A stretch of 58,198 bases of DNA from a virus (Duplodnaviria; Caudoviricetes). How positions within the stretch are numbered: the first letter of the stretch is position 1; each line of letters begins with the position of its first letter. The position numbers and the translations under genes are program-made. The notes under the pieces were generated by a model that was not told the DNA's origin, did not search any database, and saw nothing but the letters and a program-made list of their open reading frames with translations. Of this stretch, positions 42,019 to 58,198 are shown in pieces. The stretch lies in the IMG/VR virus record IMGVR_UViG_3300020215_000057, positions 1-58,198 of that record. The stretch is one strand, 5' to 3'.

Positions 42019-42020
42019 AC

Positions 42021-42200: not shown

Positions 42201-42212
42201 TGATAGGGTTTT

Positions 42213-42276: not shown

Positions 42277-42336
42277 CCGCCAAGGTGAGAGTGGCGGAAA
42301 TAGCGTATGTACGCTAAAGTGTACATGGAGGTTTCG

Positions 42337-42444
42337 ATGGACACATGCTGGTTCTGCAAGCGCCCCTTGAATGAGTGCGAGTGCCCGAAGGTGGCGAAAA
42401 CGAATTATGCGCGAACGCTGTCACACAAAAGAAAACAAGTCTAG
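42337..42444 (+). CDS. Tiny Cys-rich peptide, homolog of 3238..3339
   Basis: GGAGG RBS; first 25 aa identical. Confidence 0.7.
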   Translation: MDTCWFCKRPLNECECPKVAKTNYARTLSHKRKQV

Positions 42445-42447
42445 TTC

Positions 42448-42467
42448 TGCTTACTAATTACTTAGCA
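42448..42467. promoter_or_regulatory. 20-bp palindromic operator, copy 1
   Basis: TGCTTACTAATTACTTAGCA. Confidence 0.7.
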
Positions 42468-42486
42468 GTATGATGAAATTTAGGGA

Positions 42487-43194: not shown

Positions 43195-43550
43195 GCCCAG
43201 TCCATTACTACTCAGAACTCTATGACTTCGACTACTACTTCTTCCTTGGCTGGGAGCAGCAGGCTTTTATCGATTACGTCAAAAAGCACTTTGATCATGA
43301 GAGTGAATACGATGAGGATGCTAAAGGATCCACCGAGTTCAATAAGGACGCAAAGCCTAAGGCCATCTACGTTTGGATAAAACCAGGTCAGTGCATTCCT
43401 GCGGTCCTTGTTCATGAAGTGAAACATGTGGTGAGTGAAACCCATAAGTGGGTGGGCATCAAAGCTTGCCATAAGAATGATGAGGCTGAGGCGTACCTCA
43501 GCGAGCACCTTTACCGCAAAGCTCTGGGTATTGAGCCCGATCGGTCGTGA
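43191..43550 (+). CDS. HExxH zinc metallopeptidase-like protein
   Basis: LVHEVKH...EAEAYL. Confidence 0.7.
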   Translation: MSPVHYYSELYDFDYYFFLGWEQQAFIDYVKKHFDHESEYDEDAKGSTEFNKDAKPKAIYVWIKPGQCIPAVLVHEVKHVVSETHKWVGIKACHKNDEAEAYLSEHLYRKALGIEPDRS

Positions 43551-43553
43551 TCG

Positions 43554-43766
43554 ATGGATTATTCCGACTTTCAAAAGAAATTACTTAAGATCGTAGAGGA
43601 TGAGCTCCTAGATCGCCTCGAAGAGAATGAATCTAAGATCCACTGTGAGGCTGAGATACTAGAGATTGTAGCCGATTTGTATGACGAGGTTATCGCTCTC
43701 TCTGAGGATATCCGGGCTGGCGATGTAGGGCTTGATCGCCCTTCGCAAGGCGATTCAATTCATTAG
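43554..43766 (+). CDS. Acidic hypothetical protein
   Basis: ORF track. Confidence 0.6.
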   Translation: MDYSDFQKKLLKIVEDELLDRLEENESKIHCEAEILEIVADLYDEVIALSEDIRAGDVGLDRPSQGDSIH

Positions 43767-43990
43767 AAGCGCTTATTTTGTTCGCCTGGAATGAGTACAT
43801 GCTCACAGCCGGTGCGGGCTTTGATCTCTTCATCTAACCATTCATCAAGCCATAATCTTATGTTAGCTGCCACATCAACGCCAAGGCCTTTTGCCATGTC
43901 GATCTTTTGCCTGAGGGCTTTGGTTGGTCTGAGGTTATAGGGCTTACCGTTAAGCGCCTCTTTCATGATTGTCTTGTGTTTCTTTCCCAC
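43763..43990 (-). CDS. Ribbon-helix-helix regulator candidate
   Basis: KPYNLRPTKALRQKID..GVDVAANIRLWLDE; operator directly upstream. Confidence 0.6.
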   Translation of the reverse strand: MGKKHKTIMKEALNGKPYNLRPTKALRQKIDMAKGLGVDVAANIRLWLDEWLDEEIKARTGCEHVLIPGEQNKRF

Positions 43991-44018
43991 TAATCCATCC
44001 TTGATTTATTGGGTTAAT

Positions 44019-44038
44019 TGCTTAGTATATTATAAGCA
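44019..44038. promoter_or_regulatory. 20-bp operator, copy 2 (between divergent RHH and ruvC-like genes)
   Basis: TGCTTAGTATATTATAAGCA. Confidence 0.7.
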
Positions 44039-44052
44039 GACCAAGGAGCGGT

Positions 44053-44556
44053 GTGGTAGTATTAGGAATTGATACTGGTAGCCAAGGTGCTTACGTAGCA
44101 CTTAGCGATCGAGCGAAGATAATCCATAAATTTGTGTTCTCCCATAACGATGAGGGCATCGATTTTAAGGCCTATATCGACGATTTGAAGAGCTTAAAAG
44201 AAACCGCCACCATTGCCTACGTCGAGAGTGTACATGCGATCTACGGGGCTAGTGCTGGCTCTACGTTCACCTTCGGCAGGAACTTTCAGCTTGCTCTCGA
44301 TGGACTGATGGCGGTAGGAATTCCCTTTAAGCTCGTACCTGCGAAGGAGTGGCAGAAGGCTTACTTCGTTGGCGCTGAGAAGGTATTTAAAAAGGGTAGT
44401 GAAACTAAGATTGATACGAAGGCGATGGCTTTAAAGTCAGCGCAAAAGCTTTTTAAGGGTGAGGACTTCATCGCAAAAAGGTCCGTCCATGATGGTTTAG
44501 TCGATGCGACTCTGATCGCACGCTACGGATTGATGAAGGAAAAAACAAAGTCATAG
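44053..44556 (+). CDS. RuvC-like Holliday junction resolvase
   Basis: VLGIDTG..GA; YVE.VH; FTFG; P..WQK; DG..DA.LIA. Confidence 0.85.
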   Translation: MVVLGIDTGSQGAYVALSDRAKIIHKFVFSHNDEGIDFKAYIDDLKSLKETATIAYVESVHAIYGASAGSTFTFGRNFQLALDGLMAVGIPFKLVPAKEWQKAYFVGAEKVFKKGSETKIDTKAMALKSAQKLFKGEDFIAKRSVHDGLVDATLIARYGLMKEKTKS

Positions 44557-44569
44557 GAGGATTTTGATT

Positions 44570-44980
44570 ATGATTAGCCTACAGAACAATGCAGCAGTAA
44601 CACTCGCCACTAACCAAGCCATTGGCGCTGCGTTCGCCGATCTTGGTACGGATCCAATTATCGTCACCGGGAATCTCGATGCGCTTGCGCTCCTAGTGAA
44701 AATCGATAGAAACACTGCGACCGATATTACTTTTCAATTCGTTGGCTCTGATGATGCAGCCTTTACAGATACCTATAAACTCCTAATACAAACACCAAGC
44801 GCCACGAAAGTAAATGTCGAACCTTTGGTGTTTGAGCTCTCAGTCGATGCCGATCAAAACATCCTCCTCCCAGTGTCACTCGATGGCGTTGTTCCTTTCG
44901 GGAAGTGGCAGGTCAAGGCCTCTACTTCTACTGATGCGATAGTTCTGTCAGCTAAAGTCGTCCGCAAACAGGTGTACTAA
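44570..44980 (+). CDS. Beta-rich virion accessory protein
   Basis: AGGAGG RBS; analogous position to 24657..24998. Confidence 0.6.
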   Translation: MISLQNNAAVTLATNQAIGAAFADLGTDPIIVTGNLDALALLVKIDRNTATDITFQFVGSDDAAFTDTYKLLIQTPSATKVNVEPLVFELSVDADQNILLPVSLDGVVPFGKWQVKASTSTDAIVLSAKVVRKQVY

Positions 44981-45984
44981 TGTTCACCGCGGGACTTGCT
45001 GGCGTGGTGAGCTCTGGCGGATCTAGTGTTACCGTTGATACATCGATCACGGACGGCTCAACAAACCCAGTCACGAATAATGCAATTCATGATGCTTTGG
45101 CCTTAAAGGCCGATCTTACTATTGACGTTCAGACTTTCTCAGCGAGCGGTACATGGACAAAGCCCGCTGGTAAATTTAATTCAGTCACAGTTTACATGGT
45201 AGGCGGCGGCGGCGGCGGAGGATCTGGTCGCCGAGGTGCTACGGGTACTTATACTGGAGGCGGCGGAGGTGGGGCTGGTGGCTCCTATAACGTCGCAAAA
45301 TTCACATACTCTTCTCTAGATGCTACCGTTGCCGTAACAATCGGTGCCGGTGGCACAGCAGGTGCTGCCCGAACAGCCGATGATACCGATGGCGCCGCTG
45401 GCGGTACAGGGGGCACGACAAGTTTTGGGAATCACTTTCAAGCTTTAGGTGGAGGAGCCGGCACTGGTGGGTCATCAGCCACGGCAGCTAACGGCGGGAC
45501 CACTCAAAGATCTTCAGTCTATGGAGCGCTGATCGCTTCAGCAAGCTCTAGCATTTCAGGCGTCAACGCTGGCGGTAGAAACGGGTCTTCCTCTGGTGGC
45601 GCAGGTGGTTCGATCTCAGGGCCTGGCGCTGGAGGCGGTGGTTCAGGTGGTTCATGTACATCGGCTAATGCGGCAGCAAACGGTGGCCTTGGCGGTACAG
45701 CTTTAACCGATTATCCAGCGATCACTCCAACGGGCGGCGCTGTAGGTACTGGAGGCGGTGCAGGTGGTAATGGTCAAACCTTTACGCCTACAGGAATCTA
45801 CCAGCATATCTTTGGAGCTTCAGGCGCTGGAGGCGGAGCAAGTGCAATAGCTGCGGCTGCTGGCACTGGTGGTAACGGTGCCTTTGGTAGTGGTGCAGGC
45901 GGAGGCGGTGGTAGCCGTAACGGGAATAACTCCGGAGCGGGTGGCGTAGGTGGCGATGGATATTGCTTAGTGGTAACGGAGTAA
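44980..45984 (+). CDS. Glycine-rich tail fibre/adhesin-like protein
   Basis: QTF.ASGTWTKPAG..V.V..VGGGGGGGSG; GG.GGDG..LV.T end. Confidence 0.8.
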   Translation: MFTAGLAGVVSSGGSSVTVDTSITDGSTNPVTNNAIHDALALKADLTIDVQTFSASGTWTKPAGKFNSVTVYMVGGGGGGGSGRRGATGTYTGGGGGGAGGSYNVAKFTYSSLDATVAVTIGAGGTAGAARTADDTDGAAGGTGGTTSFGNHFQALGGGAGTGGSSATAANGGTTQRSSVYGALIASASSSISGVNAGGRNGSSSGGAGGSISGPGAGGGGSGGSCTSANAAANGGLGGTALTDYPAITPTGGAVGTGGGAGGNGQTFTPTGIYQHIFGASGAGGGASAIAAAAGTGGNGAFGSGAGGGGGSRNGNNSGAGGVGGDGYCLVVTE

Positions 45985-45989
45985 TTGAA

Positions 45990-46271
45990 ATGAATAGCGT
46001 TAGAAGATTTGCGATCATCGAAAAGGGCGTAGTAGAGAACATCATCGTATGGGATGAGCGCACGCCCTATCAGTTTCCAGAAGGCAAAAAGGTAGCACCC
46101 CTTGATAGTGAGAACGAACACCTGAAGATTGGCGATAAAATCAATAGCGTTGATGTGGAAATCTTTAAATCAGAAGAGATAAAGCCCATCGAAGTAGTAG
46201 AGGAAACTCCACCGCTACCAGAGAAAAAGCCAAAGCGCCCTTGGTGGAAAGTGCTACTTTTTATCAAGTAG
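45990..46271 (+). CDS. Partner (assembly/chaperone) of the Gly-rich fibre
   Basis: RFAII..GVVENIIVWD motif typical downstream of such proteins. Confidence 0.6.
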   Translation: MNSVRRFAIIEKGVVENIIVWDERTPYQFPEGKKVAPLDSENEHLKIGDKINSVDVEIFKSEEIKPIEVVEETPPLPEKKPKRPWWKVLLFIK

Positions 46272-46530
46272 CCACGTAGCGATCGAGCTCCGAATATAAA
46301 CACTCCATCAAATACTGGCGCTCCTGGATGTCAGCGACATGGTAGAGCATCTTCATATAATCCACAGGCAGCGTATGCTGACCGAGTTCAATCTGTGCGA
46401 TGAAGGAATTACTCACGCCAATGAGGCCCGCGAGATCACGCTGTGAGAGCCCACGATGCGCTCTAAACCACTTAGAGAAGAACACGATACCCTTAGGCTC
46501 ATTGCTTATTTTTTGTTTCTTAGCTGCCAT
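46264..46530 (-). CDS. XRE-family HTH regulator
   Basis: RGLSQRDLAGLIGVSNSFIAQIELG. Confidence 0.85.
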   Translation of the reverse strand: MAAKKQKISNEPKGIVFFSKWFRAHRGLSQRDLAGLIGVSNSFIAQIELGQHTLPVDYMKMLYHVADIQERQYLMECLYSELDRYVAT

Positions 46531-47053
46531 AGACCCCCCCAACAAAGAGTTTCTTAAGCTCTTCAACCTTATAAACATACGAGGAATAAACCAAGGTATT
46601 GTTAATATTGCGGTGCCCCAAAGCGAACTGCACGAGCCTGATATCTCGGTGGCGTTTGAATAATTCTATAGCAAAGGTGTGCCTTAGTTTATGGAGAGAC
46701 TTATCGCCAAGCCTGAAGTTCTGCCAGATCTGTCGGAACCTGCGCGTAGAGATTGGAAACAGAAGGTCGTTTGAACCGATACGGTTTTCACCCAAATAGC
46801 TTTTCAGGCGCTTCGCTAGTGAATCAGTCAGTGGTAGCTCTCGACTATCTGAGCCCTTAGCACCCCTAATAAAGATCATTTTGTCAGCCAGGTTTATATC
46901 ACTACCGATGGTTTGACTGATCTCTTCCTGACGAGCGCCAGTGAACAGCAATAGCTCTACAATCAACGCATCACGATCGCGCCTGGTAGAGAGTAGGGTG
47001 GTGAGTTCTTTTAATTCTGAGGCGTTTAAGTGGCTATCCTTATTGAGAGGCAT
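46520..47053 (-). CDS. Minimal tyrosine recombinase (catalytic domain only, 177 aa)
   Basis: TGARQEE, GAKG, HKLRHTFA, LGHRNI..TLVY. Confidence 0.9.
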   Translation of the reverse strand: MPLNKDSHLNASELKELTTLLSTRRDRDALIVELLLFTGARQEEISQTIGSDINLADKMIFIRGAKGSDSRELPLTDSLAKRLKSYLGENRIGSNDLLFPISTRRFRQIWQNFRLGDKSLHKLRHTFAIELFKRHRDIRLVQFALGHRNINNTLVYSSYVYKVEELKKLFVGGVYGS

Positions 47054-47345
47054 GCTTCACCTCCGCAGTGGAGTAGATTGCTTGACAGATGTCGGACGAG
47101 AGGGCGCTTGAGGTGCCAAGATCCCATGCTAACCGTTTGATAGAGTAAACCTGATCGGGATGAACCTTTTTTCCAATATGCTTTTCAATGGAGGCTAAGG
47201 CTCTTAGGCCTCTCTGAGATTGCACCTCCATCTCGGCTCTCGCTTCGGGTGATAAGGGCTGATCGTCGATGAATATGTAGTGAGCGACCACTAGAAGAAT
47301 AAGAGCGTTTAACGATAGTGATAGATAGAATATTGCTTTTTTCAT
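47040..47345 (-). CDS. N-terminal TM protein
   Basis: AAGGA RBS; LSLSLNALILL. Confidence 0.7.
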   Translation of the reverse strand: MKKAIFYLSLSLNALILLVVAHYIFIDDQPLSPEARAEMEVQSQRGLRALASIEKHIGKKVHPDQVYSIKRLAWDLGTSSALSSDICQAIYSTAEVKHASQ

Positions 47346-47374
47346 TGGTATAATCCTTTTATTTGGGGGTTAAC

Positions 47375-47731
47375 GTGGGTACTGAATTTAAAAATGAGCT
47401 TGGTTTCGTCGATCTTCCTAAACAACTCGCCAAAGAGAAGGCCGATGCCGCAAAAGACTGGGCTACACTTCAGAGCCAACAAATGATTCAGCCTGACCCA
47501 GGATTTTGGCAATCTCTCGCTAATGGTGTTAAGAATTTCGCTGCTGAAAAGAAACTTGACTACGCTGAGATGAGAGCCGGTGGCAACGCCAATCCTTTCG
47601 CTGAAGATCCTGAAGAGAACAGACGCTATGACATCGTGGAGCGCATGAGAAAGGCTCGCCAAGCGGAGCAACCCGTTGATCAGGAGCTTAACAGCGAGTG
47701 GCTCAGGCTTCTTCAGCGAGGCGAATACTAG
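47375..47731 (+). CDS. Hypothetical protein in opposite orientation with own extended -10
   Basis: TGGTATAAT at 47346..47354; GGGGG RBS. Confidence 0.6.
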   Translation: MGTEFKNELGFVDLPKQLAKEKADAAKDWATLQSQQMIQPDPGFWQSLANGVKNFAAEKKLDYAEMRAGGNANPFAEDPEENRRYDIVERMRKARQAEQPVDQELNSEWLRLLQRGEY

Positions 47732-47856
47732 CCTATCCACGACGCCACTCCAACGATGAGATAATAAATCAGCGCAAATTCTGCGGCGGTATAGCCGATA
47801 AATGCCAGCCATTTTAGCCCAGGATTGCTTTGTATGGATTTGAGAACTTTACTCAT
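47728..47856 (-). CDS. Small membrane protein (42 aa)
   Basis: MSKVLKSIQSNPGLKWLAFIGY..; overlaps upstream stop, GAGG RBS. Confidence 0.55.
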   Translation of the reverse strand: MSKVLKSIQSNPGLKWLAFIGYTAAEFALIYYLIVGVASWIG

Positions 47857-48103
47857 GTTCGCCTCTGGCTTTGGCGAGCGTCTCTTCGATTCTCAATTGG
47901 AGTTGTGATGACCAAATTTCTGATTGGTCGCCGTCTAAAACCTCTTGGAGCAATTCATATAGGTCTGGTGCAGCTGCAATGAGACGAGCGTTAGCTTTAA
48001 AGTCCTTATTTCCTGTGTTTAACAGTGCCACAGTTAAGGTACCGTCAGGCCCAGCCACGGCAGTCTCTTCGTTTATCCAAGGTCCTGGTGTAAATTTAAG
48101 CAT
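47849..48103 (-). CDS. TPGPW/ANARLIAAAP-family phage protein
   Basis: FTPGPW..ANARLIAAAPDLYELL. Confidence 0.75.
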   Translation of the reverse strand: MLKFTPGPWINEETAVAGPDGTLTVALLNTGNKDFKANARLIAAAPDLYELLQEVLDGDQSEIWSSQLQLRIEETLAKARGEHE

Positions 48104-48317
48104 GTTCGCCTCCGCTATCCTTATCGGTTGGTTTGTCTGATAACTTTATACCGCGATTGATGAGCTCCTCACTCGCTAGACACGCCAGTAGCTCATTGAT
48201 CTCATCGCGGGCGCCTTGTTGCGATTGGTTCAGGTAGATCTGATTTAGTTGATCGTCGGTCGCAATTTTAGCGAGGCGTTTGAAACCATCGATGAAGTCC
48301 TGGTACTCGTTACTCAT
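48096..48317 (-). CDS. Hypothetical protein
   Basis: GGAGG RBS; coupled. Confidence 0.65.
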   Translation of the reverse strand: MSNEYQDFIDGFKRLAKIATDDQLNQIYLNQSQQGARDEINELLACLASEELINRGIKLSDKPTDKDSGGEHA

Positions 48318-48442
48318 AGGCCTGCCTCCAATCTAATAAGATCAATTAAGGTCTGCTGCAATAGCCACGTCTCGGCGCTGTATGGGCCCATACGGAGCTC
48401 CATCAGTGCTGCGTGCAGGGCGAAAGTTAGGGGTGAGATCAC
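48314..48442 (-). CDS. Small hypothetical protein (42 aa)
   Basis: Fills gap with GTGA/ATGA coupling. Confidence 0.45.
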   Translation of the reverse strand: MISPLTFALHAALMELRMGPYSAETWLLQQTLIDLIRLEAGL

Positions 48443-48729
48443 GACTCACCTCGCGCTTTCTTGAGGGCAGTTTCGATATAAACTAATGAACGCGCCAACA
48501 CAGGATCGTCCTGTGATCTCAATTTGGCTTCGATATGAACCTTGCAGACTTCTAGAGCCTCGTAGAGCTCCGGCGCTGCGGATATGAGAGCGGCGTTGGC
48601 CTTTGCTTTGCCCATAAATTGGCCCGTAGTCTCGGCAACAGCCTGAGTATGGCTATCAATTAAAAAGTGACCGTCGGAGAATCTCATAAGGGAAACCTTC
48701 CAAGGCCCATGCGTAAATTTCGGTTTCAT
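48439..48729 (-). CDS. TPGPW/ANARLIAAAP-family phage protein
   Basis: FTHGPW..ANAALISAAPELYEAL. Confidence 0.75.
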   Translation of the reverse strand: MKPKFTHGPWKVSLMRFSDGHFLIDSHTQAVAETTGQFMGKAKANAALISAAPELYEALEVCKVHIEAKLRSQDDPVLARSLVYIETALKKARGES

Positions 48730-48905
48730 TTTTCCTCCGGGTTTGCTTTAAGTAAAATTGCCTCGACAGCATGAGATAAATCATCAACGCCACCGATATG
48801 ATCTAAACATCTCTTAAGTAGCTCGAACATTTGATTATTTCTAGGATTATAAATAAGGCCTCGCTTATCAAAGGACCACGGTCCTGGTGTGTGGTTATTT
48901 CCCAT
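48726..48905 (-). CDS. Short TPGPW-family protein
   Basis: GGAGG RBS; HTPGPW. Confidence 0.6.
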   Translation of the reverse strand: MGNNHTPGPWSFDKRGLIYNPRNNQMFELLKRCLDHIGGVDDLSHAVEAILLKANPEEK

Positions 48906-49046
48906 AAAAACCTCCAACGACAAATGTTCGCGCCGACTGATTGAACGGTAACTTTACATAAAATATATCTCCCGATCGCTTGCACATTAGTTCAAGAGTG
49001 TTCGCTAAAGGGAAAATTGCGGTTATTAAGAATAGATGATGCGTAC

Positions 49047-49442
49047 TCATGGTTTGCCTCCAGATTTGTTTTTAAGGGTTGAAATAGCCTCTGATAAAAG
49101 TTCGAGCTCAATAGCGTGCAAATACGCGCGTCCGTCCTCATCGCATGAGACGACGATACCGCCTAGGGATGCCAAAATTTCACCGCAGTCGTCCTCGACA
49201 TAGGCAAAAAGGACTTCGTATGAGCCGTTCTCGAAGCGTTTAGTCCATGTTTCAGGTGAGTCGATATCGCCGATATAGTTTATCCAGCAATCCTGCTCGT
49301 GCTCGAATTTCACCTCTAGACCGATTTCACGAGCTAGTGCAACGTCGCGTGCCAGTTTCAGCGACTGAAGAGCGTTTTCGCCCACGACATACCAGGCCTG
49401 GTGAGTACGGCATTCTTTATATGTTTTTAGGATAGATTTCAT
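49047..49442 (-). CDS. Hypothetical protein
   Basis: Coupled ORF; GEILASLGGI. Confidence 0.7.
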   Translation of the reverse strand: MKSILKTYKECRTHQAWYVVGENALQSLKLARDVALAREIGLEVKFEHEQDCWINYIGDIDSPETWTKRFENGSYEVLFAYVEDDCGEILASLGGIVVSCDEDGRAYLHAIELELLSEAISTLKNKSGGKP

Positions 49443-50461
49443 TGGGTACCGCCTACGGCTTTAAGGTTAGTTCTGCGTTTGCCCTTAGAGGATTTAACTG
49501 GTTTCACTGGTAACAATCGATAGACTGAAAAATAGGTCTGAAACTGGCCCGACTCATCGTGTGAGAATATGAAGTTACCATCGGGCTCTTTATCTAAGAG
49601 TTCTGCGAGAATAGCCGTAGGGTCACCAATGCGAACTGGCACGCCAGCATATGAATGCGAACGCCACGAATCGGTCATACCGCCAACGAAACGCTCAATG
49701 AATTCAATTCTGTCGGCCTTTTCTAAGGTCTTGATAGTATCAGGCTCGACGCATTTACTGGGTTCATTAGCCCAATCATCGATGTTACTCACTGAATATT
49801 CAGCGAAACAACCGCAATTGATGCCAACGCCGTCGCGATGGTTATAATGATAGCCGTCGTCGATCGTATCGTAGACTCCGCATTCAGTGCATCTGTTCAC
49901 TGAGTCGTAAAAATAGGTATCGTCGACCTTGTTAGCCTTAAAGAATTTATCAAGTGAATAACCTAAAAGCGGAATGTGGTGGTAAAAATGCCAGCCACTC
50001 ATTATAAGCCAATACTCACCGTTCTCAGCCTCACCACAATCTTCAATACCTAAGCGATAGGCATCGCAACCGTTAATAATTTCGTATAACGAATCCTTAG
50101 CCGCGGTGTTATTAATAGTCTGTCTAGGCGTGAGAGTGTGGCACTCAACGATCTTAACAAAGCCTAGATATTGAGTTACCATCTCACCCTTTTTGTCGCA
50201 GTAGTTACGTTTATAACCCTCGACTTTTTTAGCGAGAATGATAGCCTCTGTTATCTGGATTTCACGCCAGCCGTTTGTTTCCTTAAGATCTTTAGCAATG
50301 CCGTTAGTTCTAAGACCTAACTCTTTTGCGCGCGCCTTGAGCTCTGGGATGCCGGCGCTATCATCGTAAAGGTTTGGCAGGATTTCATAACGTGTCGAAC
50401 TAGTAGAGAATCTAGGGCCATCGGATGCATATATAGAGTGGTATTTAATCATTCGTTTCAT
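49439..50461 (-). CDS. Hypothetical 340-aa protein, first gene of the leftward operon
   Basis: AGGAG RBS; CTECG..CGC; SGQFQ.YF. Confidence 0.8.
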   Translation of the reverse strand: MKRMIKYHSIYASDGPRFSTSSTRYEILPNLYDDSAGIPELKARAKELGLRTNGIAKDLKETNGWREIQITEAIILAKKVEGYKRNYCDKKGEMVTQYLGFVKIVECHTLTPRQTINNTAAKDSLYEIINGCDAYRLGIEDCGEAENGEYWLIMSGWHFYHHIPLLGYSLDKFFKANKVDDTYFYDSVNRCTECGVYDTIDDGYHYNHRDGVGINCGCFAEYSVSNIDDWANEPSKCVEPDTIKTLEKADRIEFIERFVGGMTDSWRSHSYAGVPVRIGDPTAILAELLDKEPDGNFIFSHDESGQFQTYFSVYRLLPVKPVKSSKGKRRTNLKAVGGTQ

Positions 50462-50515
50462 ATTTATAACTCCTGTTTTGGGCTCGTCCCTTGAGCCGGT
50501 TATACAGATCTATAA

Positions 50516-50532
50516 AGCACACGGTGTGCCAA
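50516..50532 (-). promoter_or_regulatory. Sigma54 (RpoN) promoter
   Basis: Minus strand TTGGCACACCGTGTGCT, GG-N10-GC. Confidence 0.7.
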
Positions 50533-50556
50533 AGTTTCAGAGCGTGAAATTTCAAG

Positions 50557-50576
50557 TGCTTAGTACCTGCTTAGCA
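50557..50576. promoter_or_regulatory. 20-bp operator, copy 3
   Basis: TGCTTAGTACCTGCTTAGCA. Confidence 0.65.
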
Positions 50577-50692
50577 GATCTTGAGGCGTCGAACTTATTG
50601 ACGCTTGGGTGCGCTAAGGTGAGATTTCAGAGTGGAAATAGCTGAAATCAATAGAGATTTGAGCAATCGTCGAACTTCTGTACGATGTCGCG

Positions 50693-50712
50693 TGATTAGT
50701 CAGTGCTTAGCA
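50693..50712. promoter_or_regulatory. 20-bp operator, copy 4
   Basis: TGATTAGTCAGTGCTTAGCA. Confidence 0.55.
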
Positions 50713-50736
50713 GCGCGTCGTGAATGTAAGCAAAGA

Positions 50737-50751
50737 TGAGAATGATTATCA
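50737..50751. promoter_or_regulatory. Fur box-like site
   Basis: TGAGAATGATTATCA, one mismatch to the 7-1-7 TGATAATnATTATCA. Confidence 0.6.
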
Positions 50752-51078
50752 ATTAAGATTTCATTAGGCAATGAAACAATTTGTGTAACAATAAAATGAA
50801 TCGATTGACCCCCTGACCTTATATATAGTTGGAACCTAAGAGCTCCATCGTTGACTACCGCTTATAACCAGAAACGGCAATATTCGACTAATGATTTCAA
50901 TGGGTTAGACCAGCGCCAAAAACGCCTAGATTTGTTGATTTTAGGCTAGAAAACGGCCAGTTTTAGTTGGCTCAAATCGAATAGGGGGGGGTGGGGGTCT
51001 AATTTATATAAATATTTATGTAATTCATCGCCACCCAAAATTTTTAACCAAATTTCACAATATCTTCACATCTGGTCT

Positions 51079-51098
51079 TGCTAAGTAATTACTAAGCA
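51079..51098. promoter_or_regulatory. 20-bp operator, copy 5 (before the packaging operon)
   Basis: TGCTAAGTAATTACTAAGCA; 19/20 to the reverse complement of copy 1. Confidence 0.75.
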
Positions 51099-51113
51099 CT
51101 TACGCTTATCCTA

Positions 51114-51779
51114 GTGAATTCCTTAACTCACCAAATCGATCTGACGGCACTGCAATCCCTCGAGCAAGATCAGGTAGCTGACTTCCTGCCCTCGATCATC
51201 CGTGAGCGTGTGAACGCGATCCCCTCTGAAATCTACGATATGCCCTTCGAAGCTCTCGAGCGCAAGCTCTCAGTCGATGGCCATGTGCCTATTGAGCTCT
51301 CACGCGTTCGTATAGCCTTCTGGCTCGAATTTGAGCGAGCAAGCCGCACAGGCATACCCTTCTCTCTCGCCGCCGTCTGTGGAGGCGTTATGGGGCTCTC
51401 AAAGCTTCAGAAGGAAGTCCTAGCGAATTCCTATCGCCTGGCCTACATAATCACGCCACCGCCGTCCTATGCGCTCGTAATGGACGAGTTCCTCCACTAT
51501 GGCCTTCAGCTTCAGCGCGAGATCCTAAACATGCCACATGTAAACCCTAAGAACGGGCGCACTGACACCGCCATGCTTAGCCTCAAGAACAAGATCATCG
51601 AAGGCATCCATAACCGAGTTAAGGGAATGCCGACCTCAAAGAGCGTACATATCCAAAAACAGCTTGGCGAGGGTGAACTTATAAACCCAGCGGGCGATAT
51701 TAAGGAAATCGACGCCAAGATCGCAGAGCTCGAATCAAGCGAGAAGGAAGTGAAGTCCTTACGGCGAGGCGAATCGTGA
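51114..51779 (+). CDS. Possible terminase small subunit
   Basis: First gene of the operon leading to terL; helical; positional call only. Confidence 0.5.
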   Translation: MNSLTHQIDLTALQSLEQDQVADFLPSIIRERVNAIPSEIYDMPFEALERKLSVDGHVPIELSRVRIAFWLEFERASRTGIPFSLAAVCGGVMGLSKLQKEVLANSYRLAYIITPPPSYALVMDEFLHYGLQLQREILNMPHVNPKNGRTDTAMLSLKNKIIEGIHNRVKGMPTSKSVHIQKQLGEGELINPAGDIKEIDAKIAELESSEKEVKSLRRGES

Positions 51780-52315
51780 GCGTGATCCTAACCATCCTCT
51801 CCGCATGGCTACTCGCTGACTTTCTCTCAGGCCTATTCCATTGGTACGAAGATCGCCTGCTGATCGAGCCATCGCGATTCAAGCTTATCGAGCAAATAAG
51901 AATCGATAACGAACTTCACCATGTCCAGCCCTACGCGATGACAAGGCTTCCGTGGGTAGACAATATTTACCAATCGGTATATGTAGCTTCTCCAGTTTCT
52001 CTTTGTTTAAGCCTTGCCGGCGCGCCGGTTGTTATCTCTTTGGCGATTCTCTTCCTAGGCTTCGCTAACCTCGTCCATCGCTGGGCGCACATTCATCCAA
52101 AGAAACTTAATCGATTCATTAGATTCATGCAGTCGCTGGGACTTTTTATCTGCTTCGATCATCACAATTCTCACCACTTCTCTGAAGGCACTGGCCGCAT
52201 TACTAAAGAAAACTCAACCTCTCACTACTGCGTTATGACCTGCTGGCTAAATCCGATCTTAGACAGAATTCGATTCTTTAAATTCCTAGAGCTTATATTC
52301 ATGAGGCGTAAATGA
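51776..52315 (+). CDS. CarF/TMEM189(PEDS1)/FAD4-family lipid desaturase
   Basis: ADFLSGLFHW..D, ELHH..P, HRWAH, HHNSHH, YCVMTCWLNPILD..FF..LE; TM segments. Confidence 0.88.
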   Translation: MSVILTILSAWLLADFLSGLFHWYEDRLLIEPSRFKLIEQIRIDNELHHVQPYAMTRLPWVDNIYQSVYVASPVSLCLSLAGAPVVISLAILFLGFANLVHRWAHIHPKKLNRFIRFMQSLGLFICFDHHNSHHFSEGTGRITKENSTSHYCVMTCWLNPILDRIRFFKFLELIFMRRK

Positions 52316-52461
52316 CCAATCTACAATTCTTCGCAATCATCATGGCTCTAGCTGTGATCGCAGCGAACACTTACGAAAATGACGAAATCATGCAGTTCAC
52401 CTGGCGAGGGATCTCCTGGGCCTCGTGCTTCTGCCTAGCCTACGAGGTTCTAGCTATATGA
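52312..52461 (+). CDS. Small two-TM peptide (49 aa)
   Basis: ATGA coupling on both sides; GAGG RBS. Confidence 0.55.
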   Translation: MTNLQFFAIIMALAVIAANTYENDEIMQFTWRGISWASCFCLAYEVLAI

Positions 52462-52733
52462 CACCAGAAGAAGTAACAAAGCTTGAGAGCTATATTAAAA
52501 CCCTACCCTTCATTTGGCCGATCGCCATGATTGCGATCTATCCGAACAAGATGGGTAATTACTTCTTTCAAAACGCGCCTAAGTTCTTTGTCGATATAAC
52601 GCTCGAGTGCCCTGAGACAAAGAAAACCATGGTTATCCAAAAGAACGCCAAGGACTTGCTACGAAAGATCAACCAACACGAAAAATACAAACACCTCAAG
52701 GATGAAGTGAATGAGACGAAACAAGAGAGTTAG
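52458..52733 (+). CDS. Hypothetical protein
   Basis: GAGG RBS. Confidence 0.6.
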   Translation: MTPEEVTKLESYIKTLPFIWPIAMIAIYPNKMGNYFFQNAPKFFVDITLECPETKKTMVIQKNAKDLLRKINQHEKYKHLKDEVNETKQES

Positions 52734-52956
52734 AAATAAAACTGCCTGCATTGGTTTATTCAGCAAAAAGCGCCAGCTTGAGGCGCTCACTCAGCACATC
52801 AATGAATTGGTGCGTGAGCTCGATCACAGGTTCCAGATGTACGCGAAAGCTAACGTCTCACCGCGCGAGATGCTCTGTCGTTTAGCTTCGCTTCGCCGTG
52901 AGATCGATCAGTCCTTCATTAGAGCCCGAGAGCTTGAGGCGAGCCAAATCCATTGA
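52711..52956 (+). CDS. Basic coiled-coil hypothetical protein
   Basis: Coupled to terL. Confidence 0.55.
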   Translation: MRRNKRVRNKTACIGLFSKKRQLEALTQHINELVRELDHRFQMYAKANVSPREMLCRLASLRREIDQSFIRARELEASQIH

Positions 52957-54470
52957 ATAATTCTAGAGAGTACGCCGCTAAACTTAAAAAGCTTCAGCTC
53001 CTAGAGCAGCGCGAGAAGATGCGCTTTGAACTTCCGCACCTCTATGGCTTTCCATTATACAGTTGGGCTGAGGAGTTCATTTACTCTGATGGCGGTCCAG
53101 GGCGCATGCTCCTGCTCTGTGCTGCGAATCAGGTGTCAAAGAGCAGTACTCTCATCCGAAAGAACATCACACTCGCCACTGATAAAACCCTCTGGCCTAG
53201 GTTCTTCCCACGGCGTGAGCCCATGACCTTCTGGTACGTCTATCCTGACGAGAATAAGATCGAGGAAGAGTTCAGAGATAAGTGGGTGCCTGAGTTCCTA
53301 CCGCGCGGAACGATGAAGGATGACCCTATCTATGGCTGGCGAGAAGTTAGATCCAAGCAAGGCAAGCTTAGTGTGCATTTCAATAGCGGCGTTGTAATCG
53401 CCTTTAAAACCTGGAAGTCAGATCTTCAGTCAGGAACCTTAGACATGGTTTCAGTCGATGAGGAACTGCCAGCGAAGCTATACCCGGAGCTTGCGCTGAG
53501 ACTTTCCAGATACGCCGGGATTTTCGCGATGGTGTTTACAGCGACCTTGAATCAAGATTTCTGGTTTCGTGCGATCGAACAGCGCGGTAAAAAAGATGAG
53601 ACCTTCGTTCATGCGAAGAAGTGGCAAATATCCATGGAGCATGATTGTAAGGTCTATGCTGATGGATCGCCAAGCCCATGGACTGAGGAAGAAGTAAATC
53701 GCGTTAAGAACTCCTGCGGCTCTCAAACAGAGATTGATCGTAGGGTGCATGGCAGATTTGTGACTGAGGTTGGTGTGAAGTACTCAAGCTTCTCTCGTGA
53801 GAAGAACGTCAAACCCGCCTCGCCAACGCCCAAGGGCTGGCACTATTACTCAGGCGTTGATATCGGCTCAGGCGGAAAAAACCATAAGGCTGCGATAAGT
53901 ATCGTGGCGGTGAATCCCTCCTACACCTACGGAAAGCTCGTAAAGTTCTGGAAGGGTGATGAGTCACACGAGACCACCAACGATGACATCTTAGATAAAT
54001 ATAAAGAAATGACCGCCGATATTCCTGTCCTTGACTGTGAACAGTATGATCATCGGGCGCGTGATTTTTTCCTCACTGCGGAGCGAGCTGGCTTTTCATT
54101 TCAGAAGGCTAACAAGGACCACGGCGAGGATATGCTCAATATGCTCTTCAAGAACCAGATGCTGGATATTGAGGAGGGCGAGCTCACGGATGAGCTCGTT
54201 ATTGAGCTATCTACTCTCAGAGTGGATACAGCTAAGACCGTAGCGAAGGACGATGGCATTGATTCCCTCCGTTATGCAGTAAGTAGTGTTGAGTGGGATC
54301 TTTCCCGCATTCAATCAAACACGCTCATCGAGTTTAAAAAGCAGAGTCAAAAGAAAATAGAAACAAGCAATGAATCACATAGAGGCGATCCAACTCTTCA
54401 GCCTGAGCCCAACGAATGGGACTCAGATCAAGAGATCGACGACTGGAACGACCTACAAGGAGGTTTTTAA
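52953..54470 (+). CDS. terL: Terminase large subunit (phage B)
   Basis: AANQVSKS Walker A variant, SVDEE Walker B, FTAT, GVDIG, DDGIDSLRYA. Confidence 0.9.
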   Translation: MNNSREYAAKLKKLQLLEQREKMRFELPHLYGFPLYSWAEEFIYSDGGPGRMLLLCAANQVSKSSTLIRKNITLATDKTLWPRFFPRREPMTFWYVYPDENKIEEEFRDKWVPEFLPRGTMKDDPIYGWREVRSKQGKLSVHFNSGVVIAFKTWKSDLQSGTLDMVSVDEELPAKLYPELALRLSRYAGIFAMVFTATLNQDFWFRAIEQRGKKDETFVHAKKWQISMEHDCKVYADGSPSPWTEEEVNRVKNSCGSQTEIDRRVHGRFVTEVGVKYSSFSREKNVKPASPTPKGWHYYSGVDIGSGGKNHKAAISIVAVNPSYTYGKLVKFWKGDESHETTNDDILDKYKEMTADIPVLDCEQYDHRARDFFLTAERAGFSFQKANKDHGEDMLNMLFKNQMLDIEEGELTDELVIELSTLRVDTAKTVAKDDGIDSLRYAVSSVEWDLSRIQSNTLIEFKKQSQKKIETSNESHRGDPTLQPEPNEWDSDQEIDDWNDLQGGF

Positions 54471-54778
54471 TGTCCACTGAAGCAAATGAAAGCGCAACTC
54501 AAATCGATCCACAGGCTCTGGTCTCTGTGATCGAAGCACTCGCCAAGGCTGGTGCCAGACATTTTAGTTGGGGAAATATGTCGATTGATTTCGTCGAAAA
54601 GCCCGCAACGCAAGAACTTCATATCGATATGGCCGAGCACATGAAGGAACAGAATAACGAATCTGAGTACGAAAAATTAATGAGAACGAGAAAAGAATAT
54701 CTAGAAGCGCAGGACGATGACCTGGTGATCACGGATCCAGAGGCATGGCTAGCGAAGGAGACCTCAGGTGGAAATTAA
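54470..54778 (+). CDS. Acidic hypothetical protein
   Basis: AAGGAGG RBS; between terL and portal. Confidence 0.7.
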   Translation: MSTEANESATQIDPQALVSVIEALAKAGARHFSWGNMSIDFVEKPATQELHIDMAEHMKEQNNESEYEKLMRTRKEYLEAQDDDLVITDPEAWLAKETSGGN

Positions 54779-56939
54779 ACTTAAAGAGCTTACGGAGCTT
54801 AACGAACTCTACGATCGCGCTGATATGACCGATAAGAAGGTCTTTGCTGAAATGAAAAGCAATATCCTTCTCATAAATAACGAGCATTATAAAAAGTATT
54901 CGACAAAGCTCGACGCTACACTGAGAAACGCTGGCGTTAGCAAAGATCGGCGCCTTCGCCTAACTAAGAACCACACGCAGAAGATCACCTCAGACATCAA
55001 GGATATCTTTGTTTCTCAGATGTCAGCCTTTAAGCCCTGCCCTCGTAACGAGAACGAGATGTCAGATTCAAAGGCCGCGGAGCTTGCAAACTCTGTATGG
55101 CAGTGGGGTAGTGAAAAGATCGAGTGGGATGATTTTGTCGATCGTGCGGTGAATAGCTTTGTCGATATTGGCGAGGTTGGCTCTAAGGTATTCTGGGATC
55201 CGAACGCTGGCGACATAAAGGGTTATAATCAAAAAGTAACGGCTGAGGGTTTGCCTCTATTTCAAACGCCAGATGGTCAGATTACAACTCAATCGCAAGA
55301 TCAGATGGGCCTTATCAAGTATGCGCCTTTAGCTGATAAATCAAAGCCTGTTTTTTCAGGGCGCCTTTTGGTTGAGCCGCTTTATTGCTTTAACCTTCTT
55401 CGCGATCCTTCAGCGCAGTTAATGAAGAATTCCCCTGTAGTGATTTATCGCCACATGAAGGATCTTAAGGCTGCAAAACTTTTGGCGAAGGATGAGGAGA
55501 CGAAGAATAAGGTCATCGAGAGTGCGAACCGCACCTATAAAATCTTCGATTCCACGAGCGGCGAGTTCTATGATTCTAAAAATCAAGTAATGATAAGGGA
55601 GTTTTACTATAGGCCATGTCACGAATATCCACGCGGTTATTTCTACATATGCACCGAGGATGCGATCCTCGATCATGGAGAAATACCCTTCGGTGATCTT
55701 GGTGAGATTGCCTTCCCTATTAAGCACACAGGCTACGACATTATTGAAACTAGCCCGCGCTATGCCTCGCCAATCAGACCACTACGCCCACTTCAGGCTG
55801 AGGTGAATCGCACGGCCTCGAGCGAAGCTGAAACACAGATCACTATGGGCCCAGATAAGGTGTTCCTCAAGGTCGGTGGCACGATCACTAAGGGTGCAGA
55901 GATGGCAGGGATGAGGGCCTATCACACCTCAGGGCCCGCGCCAACGGTTGTTCCTGGTCGTTCAGGCCAGCAGTATGTTGGAACTCTAGAGCGTGCGATT
56001 AGTGAAATGTACTTAATCGCAAAGCTCCCGGAGAACGCCAATCCTACGGCGAATGTCACCGATCCTAGAAGTGAGCTTTATAAGTCGGTTCGTCAGAAGG
56101 CTAGATTCTCGCGCCAACTTTCTCGTCTTGAGCGCTATTTCAAGTCCATCGTGAATACCTGGATATTCCTTGCTCAGAAGTATCTCGACGATCAGGAAGT
56201 GATCAAGGCCACTGGTAAGTCTGAGGCTGTGAACATTCCTGAGTTTAAGCAAATCGAATCAAGCGATTTGGCGATTAAGATCGAGCCCGTGAGTGGTGAT
56301 TACAACACCATGTTCGGAAAGTCCTTAGAGATCGAGATGATCGCGCAGTATCTGGGTAAAGATTTGCCAGATGATATGAAGGCCGCTTTAGTGCGAAGCC
56401 TACCGTTCATGAATAAGGAGCCTGTCATTCAGCAATTGATGACCCAGTACGATGCTCCGATGAACATGCTCTTGGCACTGGATCGTGGCGAGGATCATAT
56501 TCCTAATAAGTACTCTGATGAAACCGTAATGCTCAAAGCGCTTTACCTGAGACTTCAAAAAGCGGATTACGATCTTCTGCCGCCTGAGGTTCAGGCTAAG
56601 TACGCTGAAGTGATCACCGCCTATGAAGAGATCGCAGCGATGAAGGCTGAGGAAGCTCTTCGTTTACAGAAGGGTATGATCCCTACGGGCGGAAATCTCG
56701 TCAAGGTCGATTACTACATCATGGATGAAAACGGTAAGCAGATCCGCGGTACCTTCCCTTCTGAGTCGCTTGATTGGTTGAAAGAGACCATAGCAGCGCA
56801 GGGGATGGCACAAGAGCGCCTTGAACAAATGGCAAATTCTCAAGGCCTAGTCGATATCGGAAGCCAAGTTCCATCACTTAATGAACCTAATATGCAGCAA
56901 CAACAAATTCCAATGGAGGGAATGAATGGAAGTTTCTAA
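54768..56939 (+). CDS. Portal protein (phage B)
   Basis: 723 aa after terL; D.KAAELA, GEVG.KV.WDP..G, EFYYRP..EYP.G, LRPLQ.EVNR. Confidence 0.8.
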   Translation: MEIKLKELTELNELYDRADMTDKKVFAEMKSNILLINNEHYKKYSTKLDATLRNAGVSKDRRLRLTKNHTQKITSDIKDIFVSQMSAFKPCPRNENEMSDSKAAELANSVWQWGSEKIEWDDFVDRAVNSFVDIGEVGSKVFWDPNAGDIKGYNQKVTAEGLPLFQTPDGQITTQSQDQMGLIKYAPLADKSKPVFSGRLLVEPLYCFNLLRDPSAQLMKNSPVVIYRHMKDLKAAKLLAKDEETKNKVIESANRTYKIFDSTSGEFYDSKNQVMIREFYYRPCHEYPRGYFYICTEDAILDHGEIPFGDLGEIAFPIKHTGYDIIETSPRYASPIRPLRPLQAEVNRTASSEAETQITMGPDKVFLKVGGTITKGAEMAGMRAYHTSGPAPTVVPGRSGQQYVGTLERAISEMYLIAKLPENANPTANVTDPRSELYKSVRQKARFSRQLSRLERYFKSIVNTWIFLAQKYLDDQEVIKATGKSEAVNIPEFKQIESSDLAIKIEPVSGDYNTMFGKSLEIEMIAQYLGKDLPDDMKAALVRSLPFMNKEPVIQQLMTQYDAPMNMLLALDRGEDHIPNKYSDETVMLKALYLRLQKADYDLLPPEVQAKYAEVITAYEEIAAMKAEEALRLQKGMIPTGGNLVKVDYYIMDENGKQIRGTFPSESLDWLKETIAAQGMAQERLEQMANSQGLVDIGSQVPSLNEPNMQQQQIPMEGMNGSF

Positions 56940-57858
56940 TGAAACCGTAATACCAGTAGACAACGCGAGCGAAGCCCCTGAGGCGACGCTTGAAATAGCT
57001 CAAAGCCAAGCGCCACTTTCTGATGAGGTGGCACCAGCGGTCAAAGCCGAGCCGGCACAGCCCGCCTATACGCCAGATTACACCTATAAGGTCGTAAACG
57101 AGGTTAAGGAGTTCGATCCAAGAATCAAGGGGCTTATTAAGTCTAAGGAAGATGAGCAGTGGGCACGCGACCTTGTAACGAAGGCTGAGGGCCTTGAAGT
57201 AAATAAACGAAATCTCGAGATGACAGCCCGCGAGCGCGATCAACTCAAAGCTGCGTACATGCCGCTTCAAAAGGACGTCACTCAAGTTTTACATATGATT
57301 GACAAAAAAGACTATCCTTCGCTGTTTGCTGTGCTTGGCGTGGATAAGAAGGACATTCTTCAGTGGGCCTATGAGGAAGTCACTGTACAGGAGTTGCCGG
57401 AACACCAAAGAAAGGCATATAATGAGCGAAACGAGCTTTCTCGCAAGCACTACACTCTTGAGCAGCAAAATCAAGAAATGCGCGAACAGCTTCAGCAAAT
57501 TCAGCTCACGCAACGCCAAACTGAGCTCACAAATATTGTAAATTCAGGCGATCACGCTTCGATCGTAAAAGAGTTCGACCAACGAAATGGTCCAAACGCT
57601 TTCTATAACGAGGTTGTTCGCAGAGGAGTAGCTCACGCTACGGCCACGGGAGAGACGAAATCTCCGCAAGATGTGATTAATGAAATTATCACTGTCTATG
57701 GTCTAAAGAGAGAGGCTCCAAAAGCTACGAATATGAGTTCAGGACAGGGCGCTTTACCAGTGATTCCGAACACCGGAAGTAGTGGTGCAGCTCCAGTCAT
57801 GAAAAAAATCAAAACGGTAGAGGAGATGAAGGCATACGCCCAAACCCTCGAAGACTAA
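56926..57858 (+). CDS. Scaffolding protein (phage B)
   Basis: Acidic N-terminus, coiled coil; between portal and capsid. Confidence 0.65.
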   Translation: MEVSNETVIPVDNASEAPEATLEIAQSQAPLSDEVAPAVKAEPAQPAYTPDYTYKVVNEVKEFDPRIKGLIKSKEDEQWARDLVTKAEGLEVNKRNLEMTARERDQLKAAYMPLQKDVTQVLHMIDKKDYPSLFAVLGVDKKDILQWAYEEVTVQELPEHQRKAYNERNELSRKHYTLEQQNQEMREQLQQIQLTQRQTELTNIVNSGDHASIVKEFDQRNGPNAFYNEVVRRGVAHATATGETKSPQDVINEIITVYGLKREAPKATNMSSGQGALPVIPNTGSSGAAPVMKKIKTVEEMKAYAQTLED

Positions 57859-57878
57859 TTTTTTCAATGGAGTGAAAA

Positions 57879-58198
57879 ATGACAGCCTCTTATAATGACA
57901 TGTTAAATGATCATTTACATTATGATCTATTAAAAGAAAAACTCGAAAAGAAGAACTACATCTGGAAAACCCTTGAGCATGACGACGACGTCAGTGGCGA
58001 TATCATCGTCCCTTTCGAATCTTCTCGTGCTTCAAGCGTTAAAGCCGGTGGCGGCCCTACTGCGGTATCTGCCATCTCTAAGCACGCTAACGTGCGCGGT
58101 TCAATTGCGTTCGCAAACCTTCCAAAGCGTTGGGGTTCACTTATCTTCAATTGGGAAGATATTTTAAACCACGATGGTCGCATAAAAGCAAAGAGCTA
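57879..58198 (+). CDS. Probable major capsid protein, truncated by window end
   Basis: GGAG RBS; open frame MTASYNDMLNDHLHYDLL.. to the end; position after scaffold. Confidence 0.6.
   Translation, partial: MTASYNDMLNDHLHYDLLKEKLEKKNYIWKTLEHDDDVSGDIIVPFESSRASSVKAGGGPTAVSAISKHANVRGSIAFANLPKRWGSLIFNWEDILNHDGRIKAKS

Follow-up and report, generated by a model that had tools for sequence, protein, structure and literature searches.

A PF10520 gene within a phage packaging operon

The stretch of DNA analysed here, hereafter the window, is the whole 58,198-nt IMG/VR virus record IMGVR_UViG_3300020215_000057, a tailed-phage sequence (Duplodnaviria; Caudoviricetes). Beside a set of packaging genes, it carries an intact open reading frame (ORF) of 179 amino acids (aa) that matches the Pfam family PF10520 (Lipid_desat), to which CarF of Myxococcus xanthus, PEDS1 of animals, and the plant desaturase FAD4 belong. 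A previous description made from the letters alone (the sequence-only reading) had taken this ORF, which we call the desaturase ORF, for a lipid desaturase gene embedded in a DNA-packaging operon. As set out below, the window is most simply read as parts of two phages, designated A and B, and the desaturase ORF lies in the phage B part. The operon and its surroundings comprise the following features.

50462–51113, no strand assigned: 652-nt non-coding stretch 5′ of the operon, presumably a regulatory or packaging-site region
51114–51779, plus strand: 221-aa ORF (p221), first in the operon, possible small terminase subunit (Terminase_2 lead only)
51776–52315, plus strand: desaturase ORF, homologue of PF10520 (Lipid_desat) membrane di-iron enzymes, short "N-type", 179 aa (ORF listing, Pfam, alignments, hydropathy)
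52312–52461, plus strand: 49-aa hydrophobic peptide (p49), one clear transmembrane-like segment
52458–52733, plus strand: 91-aa ORF (p91), short hydrophobic stretch and charged C-terminus (ORF listing, hydropathy)
52711–52956, plus strand: 81-aa basic helical protein (p81; ORF listing)
52953–54470, plus strand: TerL2, large terminase subunit of the desaturase-carrying phage, 505 aa, TTG start (phrog_2, tblastn)
54768–56939, plus strand: probable portal (portal 2), 723 aa, weak evidence (SU10_portal below cut-off, phrog_1216)

The desaturase ORF starts with GTG, preceded by GAGG six bases upstream, and is joined to both neighbours by 4-nt overlaps, GTGA with the stop of the 221-aa ORF and ATGA with the start of the 49-aa ORF, in agreement with the tight coupling described in the sequence-only reading. 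The 49-aa ORF and the ORF at 52458–52733 also overlap via ATGA, and a TTGA overlap joins the end of the 81-aa ORF to TerL2, which starts with TTG. The TerL2 gene lies 640 nt 3′ of the desaturase ORF, matches phrog_2 in PHROGs (1.4e−12), and shares 22.7% identity with the annotated TerL of Pseudomonas phage tf in a tblastn comparison; its product is a genuine, divergent large terminase, so that the downstream terL of the earlier description stands. Portal 2 matched Pfam SU10_portal at 2.2e−5, under the cut-off of that family, and phrog_1216 at 0.0012. The 221-aa ORF, previously called the probable terS, is not established as such: it had no match in Pfam, PHROGs, or NCBIfam, and a language-model comparison (ESM Atlas) gave a lead only, to Terminase_2 clusters (score 0.89–0.90). 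The 49-aa peptide, for which two transmembrane segments had been proposed, has one clear hydrophobic segment (residues 1–21) and a weak second one, and matched no Pfam or PHROGs family. For the 81-aa protein, the best Atlas feature score was 0.77, with helical-hairpin structural look-alikes only, which is uninformative. An independent 2,348-nt X2 contig spans positions 50773–53120 (p221, the desaturase ORF, p49, p91, p81, and the start of terL) with zero differences, and the linkage of the desaturase to its neighbour genes is therefore not in doubt.

Family membership and active-site residues

The match of the desaturase ORF to PF10520 (E-value 1.8e−25; 90.5 bits against a gathering score of 26.4; profile positions 1–164 of 175), together with the motifs given below, confirmed the earlier claim of an intact 179-aa protein with all the His boxes and the C-terminal tail of the family. 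A six-frame search of the record found PF10520 as a single copy only, in the same ORF (89.7 bits). It was the sole Pfam family of this ORF at E ≤0.1, and FA_desaturase, the classical acyl-lipid family, was not matched. When a 74-sequence profile was compared with the sequences in the PDB, only chance matches appeared (E ≥0.16).

The His residues fall in the motifs FHW (H22), HH (H48 and H49), HRWAH (H101 and H105), and HNSHH (H130, H133, and H134), followed by a YCVMTCWLNPILD tail. Homologues were aligned in three sets, of 30 close, 74 diverse, and 258 total sequences. In the largest alignment, seven of the eight His were kept in 258/258 homologues and H22 in 257/258, and D26 (in HWYED) was kept in 256/258; all eight His and the Asp were also invariant in the alignments of 30 and 74. 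This metal-site signature held to approximately 30% identity, the phage clade included. The spacing of the eight His and D26 parallels that of the essential residues of mouse PEDS1, namely, H96, H121, H122, H187, H191, H215, H218, and H219 (PMC7149458) and D100, four residues past the first His (PMC8960569); here and below, statements on the reference enzymes follow the available portions of the cited papers.

At two further positions, the desaturase ORF departs from CarF and PEDS1. A ninth His (H113 in CarF, H131 in the mouse enzyme) is required for CarF/PEDS1 function (PMC9131029, PMC7149458) and is missing from plant and alphaproteobacterial homologues (PMC9131029). Mouse H131 lies nine residues past H122, and the residue nine past the HH pair of the desaturase ORF (after H49) is Leu58, as the sequence-only reading had noted in arguing against a plasmalogen-type enzyme. 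His occupied this column in just 24/258 homologues, 20 of which also had Phe at the second position, that of mouse F118, three residues before HH. An F118 mutant retains 6% activity, and the equivalent Phe is listed as totally conserved in PEDS1 and FAD4 (PMC8960569). The desaturase ORF has Asn45 here, a position mapped by spacing and by the homologue alignment, without a reference PEDS1 in the alignment. Asn was found in this column in 212/258 homologues (N-type) and Phe in 35/258 (F-type); the N-type proteins are short (median 187 aa) and the F-type proteins longer (median 238 aa), and the ninth His was present in 20 of the 35 F-type but only 4 of the 212 N-type sequences. The NCBIfam equivalog for CarF, NF045946, scored 49.6 bits against a cut-off of 500. 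Because this score is below the cut-off, the ninth His is replaced by Leu58, and Asn45 occupies the F118 position, the desaturase ORF is classed by its residues as a member of the PF10520 superfamily and not as a CarF/PEDS1 equivalent, a stronger form of the earlier argument. It likewise differs from FAD4 at a residue that FAD4 shares with PEDS1.

Hydropathy analysis indicated an N-terminal transmembrane segment (residues 1–22) and a 36-residue hydrophobic hairpin (residues 68–103), and Lys and Arg abound in both loops that bear His residues. This profile fits a predicted topology in which the N-terminus is outside, all His residues are cytoplasmic, and the first of the four transmembrane helices of CarF is lacking.

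Distribution and genomic context of the relatives

Relatives of the desaturase ORF were found in 86 of 143 pattern-matched IMG/VR stretches, 94 of 213 metagenome stretches, and 28 of 55 species-representative genomes, foremost those of Pirellulaceae, Acidobacteria, and Sphingomonadales; 974 representative proteins matched at E ≤1e−3. Two of 50,697 deposited phage records carried a relative, namely, an unannotated 595-kb metagenomic phage and Erythrobacter phage vB_EliS-L02, a phage of Erythrobacter litoralis DSM 8509, in which the homologue (positions 2337–2873 of OL955261) carries a hypothetical-protein annotation and is flanked by phoH on one side and, immediately downstream, by the portal gene. 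Plasmids, searched by tblastn, yielded no match.

Genomic context was compared across 191 loci by crude gene calling, with selected neighbours annotated with Pfam and PHROGs and propagated with phmmer; the desaturases were grouped into 89 clusters at 70% identity, and context was taken as within six genes. As lower bounds, TerL, TerS, or portal genes were present in 18 of the 89 clusters, other head or tail genes only in 8, and a divergent LysR or TetR regulator (chromosomal) in 7. The adjacent terminase matched phrog_2 in the window, L011, L147, L148, and L120, phrog_38/979 in L081, L084, and L122, phrog_15 in L125, Pfam TerL_ATPase/TerL_nuclease in L004, and GpA in L087 and L077. The homologue lay directly 5′ of TerL in L081, L084, L122, L125, L147, and L077, and in L148 (positions 5455–9231) it lay between the large terminase and portal genes, a usually adjacent pair. 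Other positions were upstream of Mu gp27 in L030, following a minor head protein in L136, and ahead of a tail sheath gene in the L026 group. Among the 19 loci with relatives at ≥40% identity, TerL lay within four genes in 6, another structural or lysis gene within two genes in 3, and other phage-like genes nearby in 2, while 1 was chromosomal and 7 were uninformative. In the phage contexts, a same-strand upstream gene was present in 20/26 clusters, with a gap of ≤20 nt in 14; in the chromosomal contexts, the corresponding values were 1/10 and 0/10.

When the contexts were mapped onto an 86-row tree, virion/lysis context required 3 changes against a shuffled mean of 8.8, and 0/500 shuffles were as low, a result that describes clustering and not probability because related sequences share labels. 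The phage copies formed two clades (supports 93 and 96), among which there was one chromosomal row. The desaturase ORF is thus part of a large phage-associated clade that recurs in the late (packaging, head, tail, and lysis) operons of unrelated phages, and the gene is not an isolated curiosity.

The genes around it changed from carrier to carrier. Ten neighbour proteins of the window that were tested, including p221 and p49, had zero matches in the other 190 loci, and window proteins of ≥80 aa gave four weak matches only, from two distant phage A genes. A conserved partner gene was sought across the 191 loci, and none was shared with the window. The families recurring in ≥3 desaturase clusters were a Trypsin_2 peptidase, Mu gp27, a tail-S protein, tail sheath proteins, terminases, portals, an unannotated family of 293–298 aa, an endolysin family, and the LysR/TetR regulators. 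In four desaturase clusters, a Trypsin_2-like serine peptidase of 367–434 aa, which the window does not have, stood immediately 5′ of the desaturase homologue (L004, L007, L077, L093, L094, L129, L131, L142, L145, and L146). The chromosomal short PF10520 genes were monocistronic and paired with a divergent LysR gene (L133, L140, L141, L159, L172, L183, and L184) or a divergent TetR gene (L088, L089, L090, L099, L102, and L134), which suggests ligand- or stress-controlled expression in bacteria.

One alternative is that the gene is lysogenic-conversion cargo, its enzyme being made from a lysogen or prophage and modifying envelope lipids for the benefit of the host, for example, in stress tolerance or phage exclusion, instead of serving lytic growth. 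Many of the carrying regions, in the bacterial genomes of Pirellula, Citromicrobium, and Sphingomonadales, resemble prophages, the chromosomal relatives are under dedicated LysR/TetR regulators, as expected of conditionally useful lipid-modifying enzymes, and L124 has two neighbours of the surface-modification type, one sulfotransferase-like and the other encoding a nucleotide-sugar epimerase. The desaturase gene alone is common to the carriers, as mobile cargo would be. However, the window gene and many of its relatives overlap their neighbours by 4 nt within packaging/head operons, no promoter or terminator of its own was detected for the window gene, and homologues also occur in contigs of 145–390 kb (L009, L023, and L043) and in vB_EliS-L02, which is lytic according to the available text of its first description (PMC9127768) and temperate in a later table (PMC12014285). 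On balance, we consider the cargo explanation improbable.

A position among lysis genes was also observed. L113 (positions 1–2145 of a 2.4-kb metagenome contig) is the closest locus in the tree (53% identity over 165 columns; 51% by tblastn, second only to L112 at 52%), and it encodes a lipoprotein with an LLSAC lipobox, then the desaturase homologue, and then an endolysin (phrog_7, 1.6e−53) whose start the desaturase homologue overlaps. The lipoprotein is spanin-like and homologous to the lipoprotein preceding the phage A endolysin. Between this lipoprotein and the endolysin, the desaturase homologue occupies the position expected of a holin. L113 thereby provides one concrete case of the link to lysis that the sequence-only reading had raised, whereas the window has no endolysin near the desaturase. 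Endolysin homologues lie two to three genes upstream of the desaturase homologue in L135 and L031, and Mu-like carriers place it just upstream of gp27, presumably where the Mu lysis genes end. Given that the protein is small, with approximately three hydrophobic segments and a basic C-terminus, it might be imagined as a holin-like or lysis-timing structural membrane protein in which the His cluster is vestigial. The near-invariance of the eight His and the Asp over 258 homologues would be unexpected for a pore former, though, the desaturase ORF matched no PHROGs family (holin families included), and most carriers have the homologue beside packaging, head, or tail genes and not beside endolysins. 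We therefore regard a holin-like role as very unlikely.

The record is a composite of two phages

The window contains two packaging modules, TerL1 and portal 1 in phage A and TerL2 and portal 2 beside the desaturase in phage B. The features that define the two parts are listed below.

6583–8091: TerL1, phage A (phrog_38, 9.6e−63)
8142–10289: portal 1, phage A (phrog_156, 1.4e−150)
33107–34195: integrase, phage A
36243–37250: DnaB-like helicase, phage A
38246–40030, no strand assigned: 1.8-kb segment shared by the two phage genomes, composite junction (depth and identity data)
40031–58198, plus strand: phage B part carrying the desaturase, cut by the record end (35,340-nt X1 contig)

Contigs of three soil-metagenome runs were compared with window positions 38199–58198. 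A separate 1,785-nt contig (38246–40030) had a depth of 40.1, against 21.8 for the left contig and 15.6 for the right contig, and the depth of this junction segment was approximately twice that of its flanks in three runs. The right-hand X1 contig (35,340 nt) covers 40001–58197 and continues approximately 17.1 kb beyond the window end. Moreover, positions 8–103 of the window are identical to 39935–40030, with the first mismatch at 104/40031, and positions 8–3312 are homologous to 39935–42411 at 82–88% identity with a spacing of approximately 39,927 nt. The simplest reading is that the 58-kb record is a composite, in which a 39.9-kb (39,927-bp) unit of phage A is followed by 18.2 kb of the related phage B, and that the desaturase belongs to phage B. 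The gene is phage-borne, as first described, but the window is not one phage. Tandem prophages, considered on account of the two terminase/portal sets, were disfavoured by the depth and identity data, which favour two genomes joined in assembly. The CheckV value of "100% complete" then describes phage A, and the window does not allow the lifestyle, lysis genes, and host of phage B to be deduced.

That the record is demonstrably composite, through the 1.8-kb shared segment, also gives some footing to the suspicion of an assembly artefact, that is, a chimeric contig in which phage DNA has been fused to a gene of bacterial origin. Against this, the junction is 11.7 kb from the desaturase, which is contained in the single 35-kb X1 contig and, without differences, in the X2 contig, and related phages show the same arrangement. 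An artefact is extremely improbable.

The TerL, portal, major head, head-closure, and ejection proteins of phage A have strong PHROGs matches; the last three, together with an endolysin-like protein, are encoded 3′ of portal 1. Neither genomes nor IMG/VR, when searched, yielded a close relative of TerL2; portal 1 had one match of 38% identity in a Hydrogenophaga genome, which is too distant for naming a host. The 82–88% homologous region of A and B precedes the late genes in each phage, and Metallophos phosphoesterase paralogues (26624–26923 in A and 42817–43116 in B; 74% identity) occupy differing genome positions. The arrangement is typical of modular mosaicism. Just upstream of the A terminase region, positions 4711–5928 encode a fusion of a ParB-like nuclease domain with a DNA methyltransferase (phrog_498, 5.5e−128). 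Three small lipoprotein-like genes lie at 27877–28684 (minus strand) and 22816–23160: two, with signal sequences ending in LITAC and LLAGC, are located between the A late genes and the integrase, and the third, directly 5′ of the phage A endolysin-like gene, may encode a spanin. In phage B, the run of plus-strand genes is broken shortly before the packaging operon by a minus-strand block (46264–50461), which encodes, among others, a short, 177-aa protein with a tyrosine-recombinase domain (46520–47053) and a 340-aa protein without a family match (49439–50461); this block may be an inserted cargo island.

Proposed function

We judge, with slightly better than even confidence, that the ORF at 51776–52315 encodes a minimal membrane di-iron oxidase, predicted to be catalytically intact, which is borne by a tailed phage, co-translated with packaging genes, and acts on a host membrane lipid. 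The enzyme would be made with the packaging genes, late in infection, and would insert into the host inner membrane with its His cluster facing the cytoplasm, where it could draw electrons from a host carrier or reductant. It would then oxidise, and most likely desaturate, a chain of an intact lipid of the host membrane at a position near the head group, a site proposed because both characterised family members act there, and the lipid change would alter membrane properties during assembly and lysis. Since the ORF is not of the plasmalogen-forming kind and is not FAD4-like at the F118 position, the substrate is probably a third one, of neither the PEDS1/CarF nor the FAD4 type, and a plasmanyl lipid is an unlikely substrate. 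Domain searches of the window for electron carriers (cytochrome b5, rubredoxin, and the 2Fe-2S ferredoxin domain Fer2) and for peroxiredoxin were negative; phage B continues beyond the window.

Several points weigh against this proposal. No characterised member of the short N-type subfamily was found, and the one alphaproteobacterial homologue assayed, according to the available text of PMC9131029, failed to replace CarF. The chemistry may differ, given Asn45 in place of a Phe whose mutant retains 6% activity, and some homologues bear a precomputed match to PF04116 (FA_hydroxylase) beside PF10520, which leaves room for hydroxylation or a non-acyl substrate. In the context survey, no seed family was nearby in 54/89 clusters, a group that includes many short contigs, and the context counts are lower bounds for this reason and because of the crude gene calling and seed propagation; the limit on the tree result given above belongs here as well. 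Late expression, as proposed in the sequence-only reading, is not established: 18 promoter-like sites were detected where 15.6 would be expected by chance and 10 terminator-like sites where 11.6 would be expected, so that neither count stood out from chance, and region 50462–51113 upstream of the operon had no promoter signal above shuffles. Among the matches listed for 50900–54500, none is on record as RNA.

Two of these points, the Asn at a position where both characterised enzymes conserve Phe and the PF04116 co-matches in several homologues, would also suit a di-iron hydroxylase or oxidase acting on another membrane substrate, such as a carotenoid, quinone, hopanoid, lipid A, or polyprenyl carrier, instead of a glycerolipid desaturase. 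In addition, the sole close chromosomal relative (L083) adjoins genes for LNT_N-domain and PMT_2-domain proteins, which we take to be tied to envelope lipid or glycan modification. Conversely, both characterised PF10520 members desaturate intact glycerophospholipids, and genes for pigments, quinones, or lipid A show no conserved association with the family across the loci. A substrate of this kind is unlikely, in our estimation, and a lipid oxidase co-translated with packaging genes is still the reading that we prefer.

Retention of the phage clade in late operons while the surroundings change implies a selectable enzymatic role in virion production or lysis. A bolder proposal, to which we attach little probability, is that a phage-specific lineage of the PEDS1/FAD4 family may form a recurrent late-gene module in tailed phages across many bacterial phyla, which would edit inner-membrane lipids near the head group before egress and thereby tune lysis timing or membrane rupture. 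If that were true, membrane lipid chemistry would join holins, endolysins, and spanins in the phage lysis/assembly programme. An enzymatic role would add a new enzyme family to the auxiliary lipid genes of phages and, possibly, a first substrate for the short bacterial subfamily; PF10520 enzymes make plasmalogens and the photosystem-associated trans-16:1 phosphatidylglycerol, which are of medical and physiological importance, and the family has a large bacterial short-form branch without a known function. The role is directly testable because the cultured phage vB_EliS-L02 carries a homologue.

Full-text literature searches retrieved no paper on phage-borne PF10520 genes, and no prior report of a common, characterised phage gene of this type was found. 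The word desaturase does not occur in the available portion of the vB_EliS-L02 paper (PMC9127768), and phages are not mentioned in the main text, as available, of a 2026 phylogeny of PEDS1/FAD4 homologues (PMC13012113). New here is the recognition, within the PEDS1/FAD4 family, of a short N-type branch that is associated with phages and repeatedly occupies late operons.

Comparison with known systems

CarF of M. xanthus and animal PEDS1 (TMEM189), which are plasmanylethanolamine Δ1′ desaturases, contain the same PF10520 domain as the phage ORF and share with it the eight essential His at near-equal spacing and the Asp four residues past the first His; the His cluster of the phage ORF is also predicted to lie on one side of the membrane, as in these enzymes. 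CarF and PEDS1 are approximately 270–280 aa in length. In contrast, the phage ORF has 179 aa, without the N-terminal part that holds the first transmembrane helix, and differs further in its Leu58 for the ninth His, its Asn45 for F118, and its location in a phage packaging operon. FAD4, the trans-Δ3 desaturase of phosphatidylglycerol 16:0 in plant and algal chloroplasts, has the same Pfam domain and the same eight-His motif and, like the phage ORF, is without the ninth His (PMC9131029, PMC7149458). The phage ORF is far shorter than FAD4 and has Asn for the conserved Phe, a distinction drawn via the published residue (PMC8960569) with no FAD4 sequence aligned. The characterised PF10520 members both act on intact glycerophospholipids, one at Δ1′ of the sn-1 alkyl chain and the other at trans-Δ3 of the sn-2 acyl chain.

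The short bacterial proteins named "fatty acid desaturase CarF family" (the NCBI name on P0209) are of the same length class (median 187 aa) and have the same N-type motif. Their chromosomal copies are monocistronic beside divergent LysR/TetR genes, unlike the phage ORF, and lie mostly outside the two phage-holding clades. Among phage enzymes, the desaturases of cyanophages are reportedly of the classical acyl-lipid type (Pfam FA_desaturase), which is another family. These cyanophage-encoded lipid desaturases (Roitman et al., ISME J; PMC5776448, available portion) constitute a precedent for auxiliary lipid desaturases in phages; the present carriers differ in that they are not cyanophages, and their gene is located in late structural operons.

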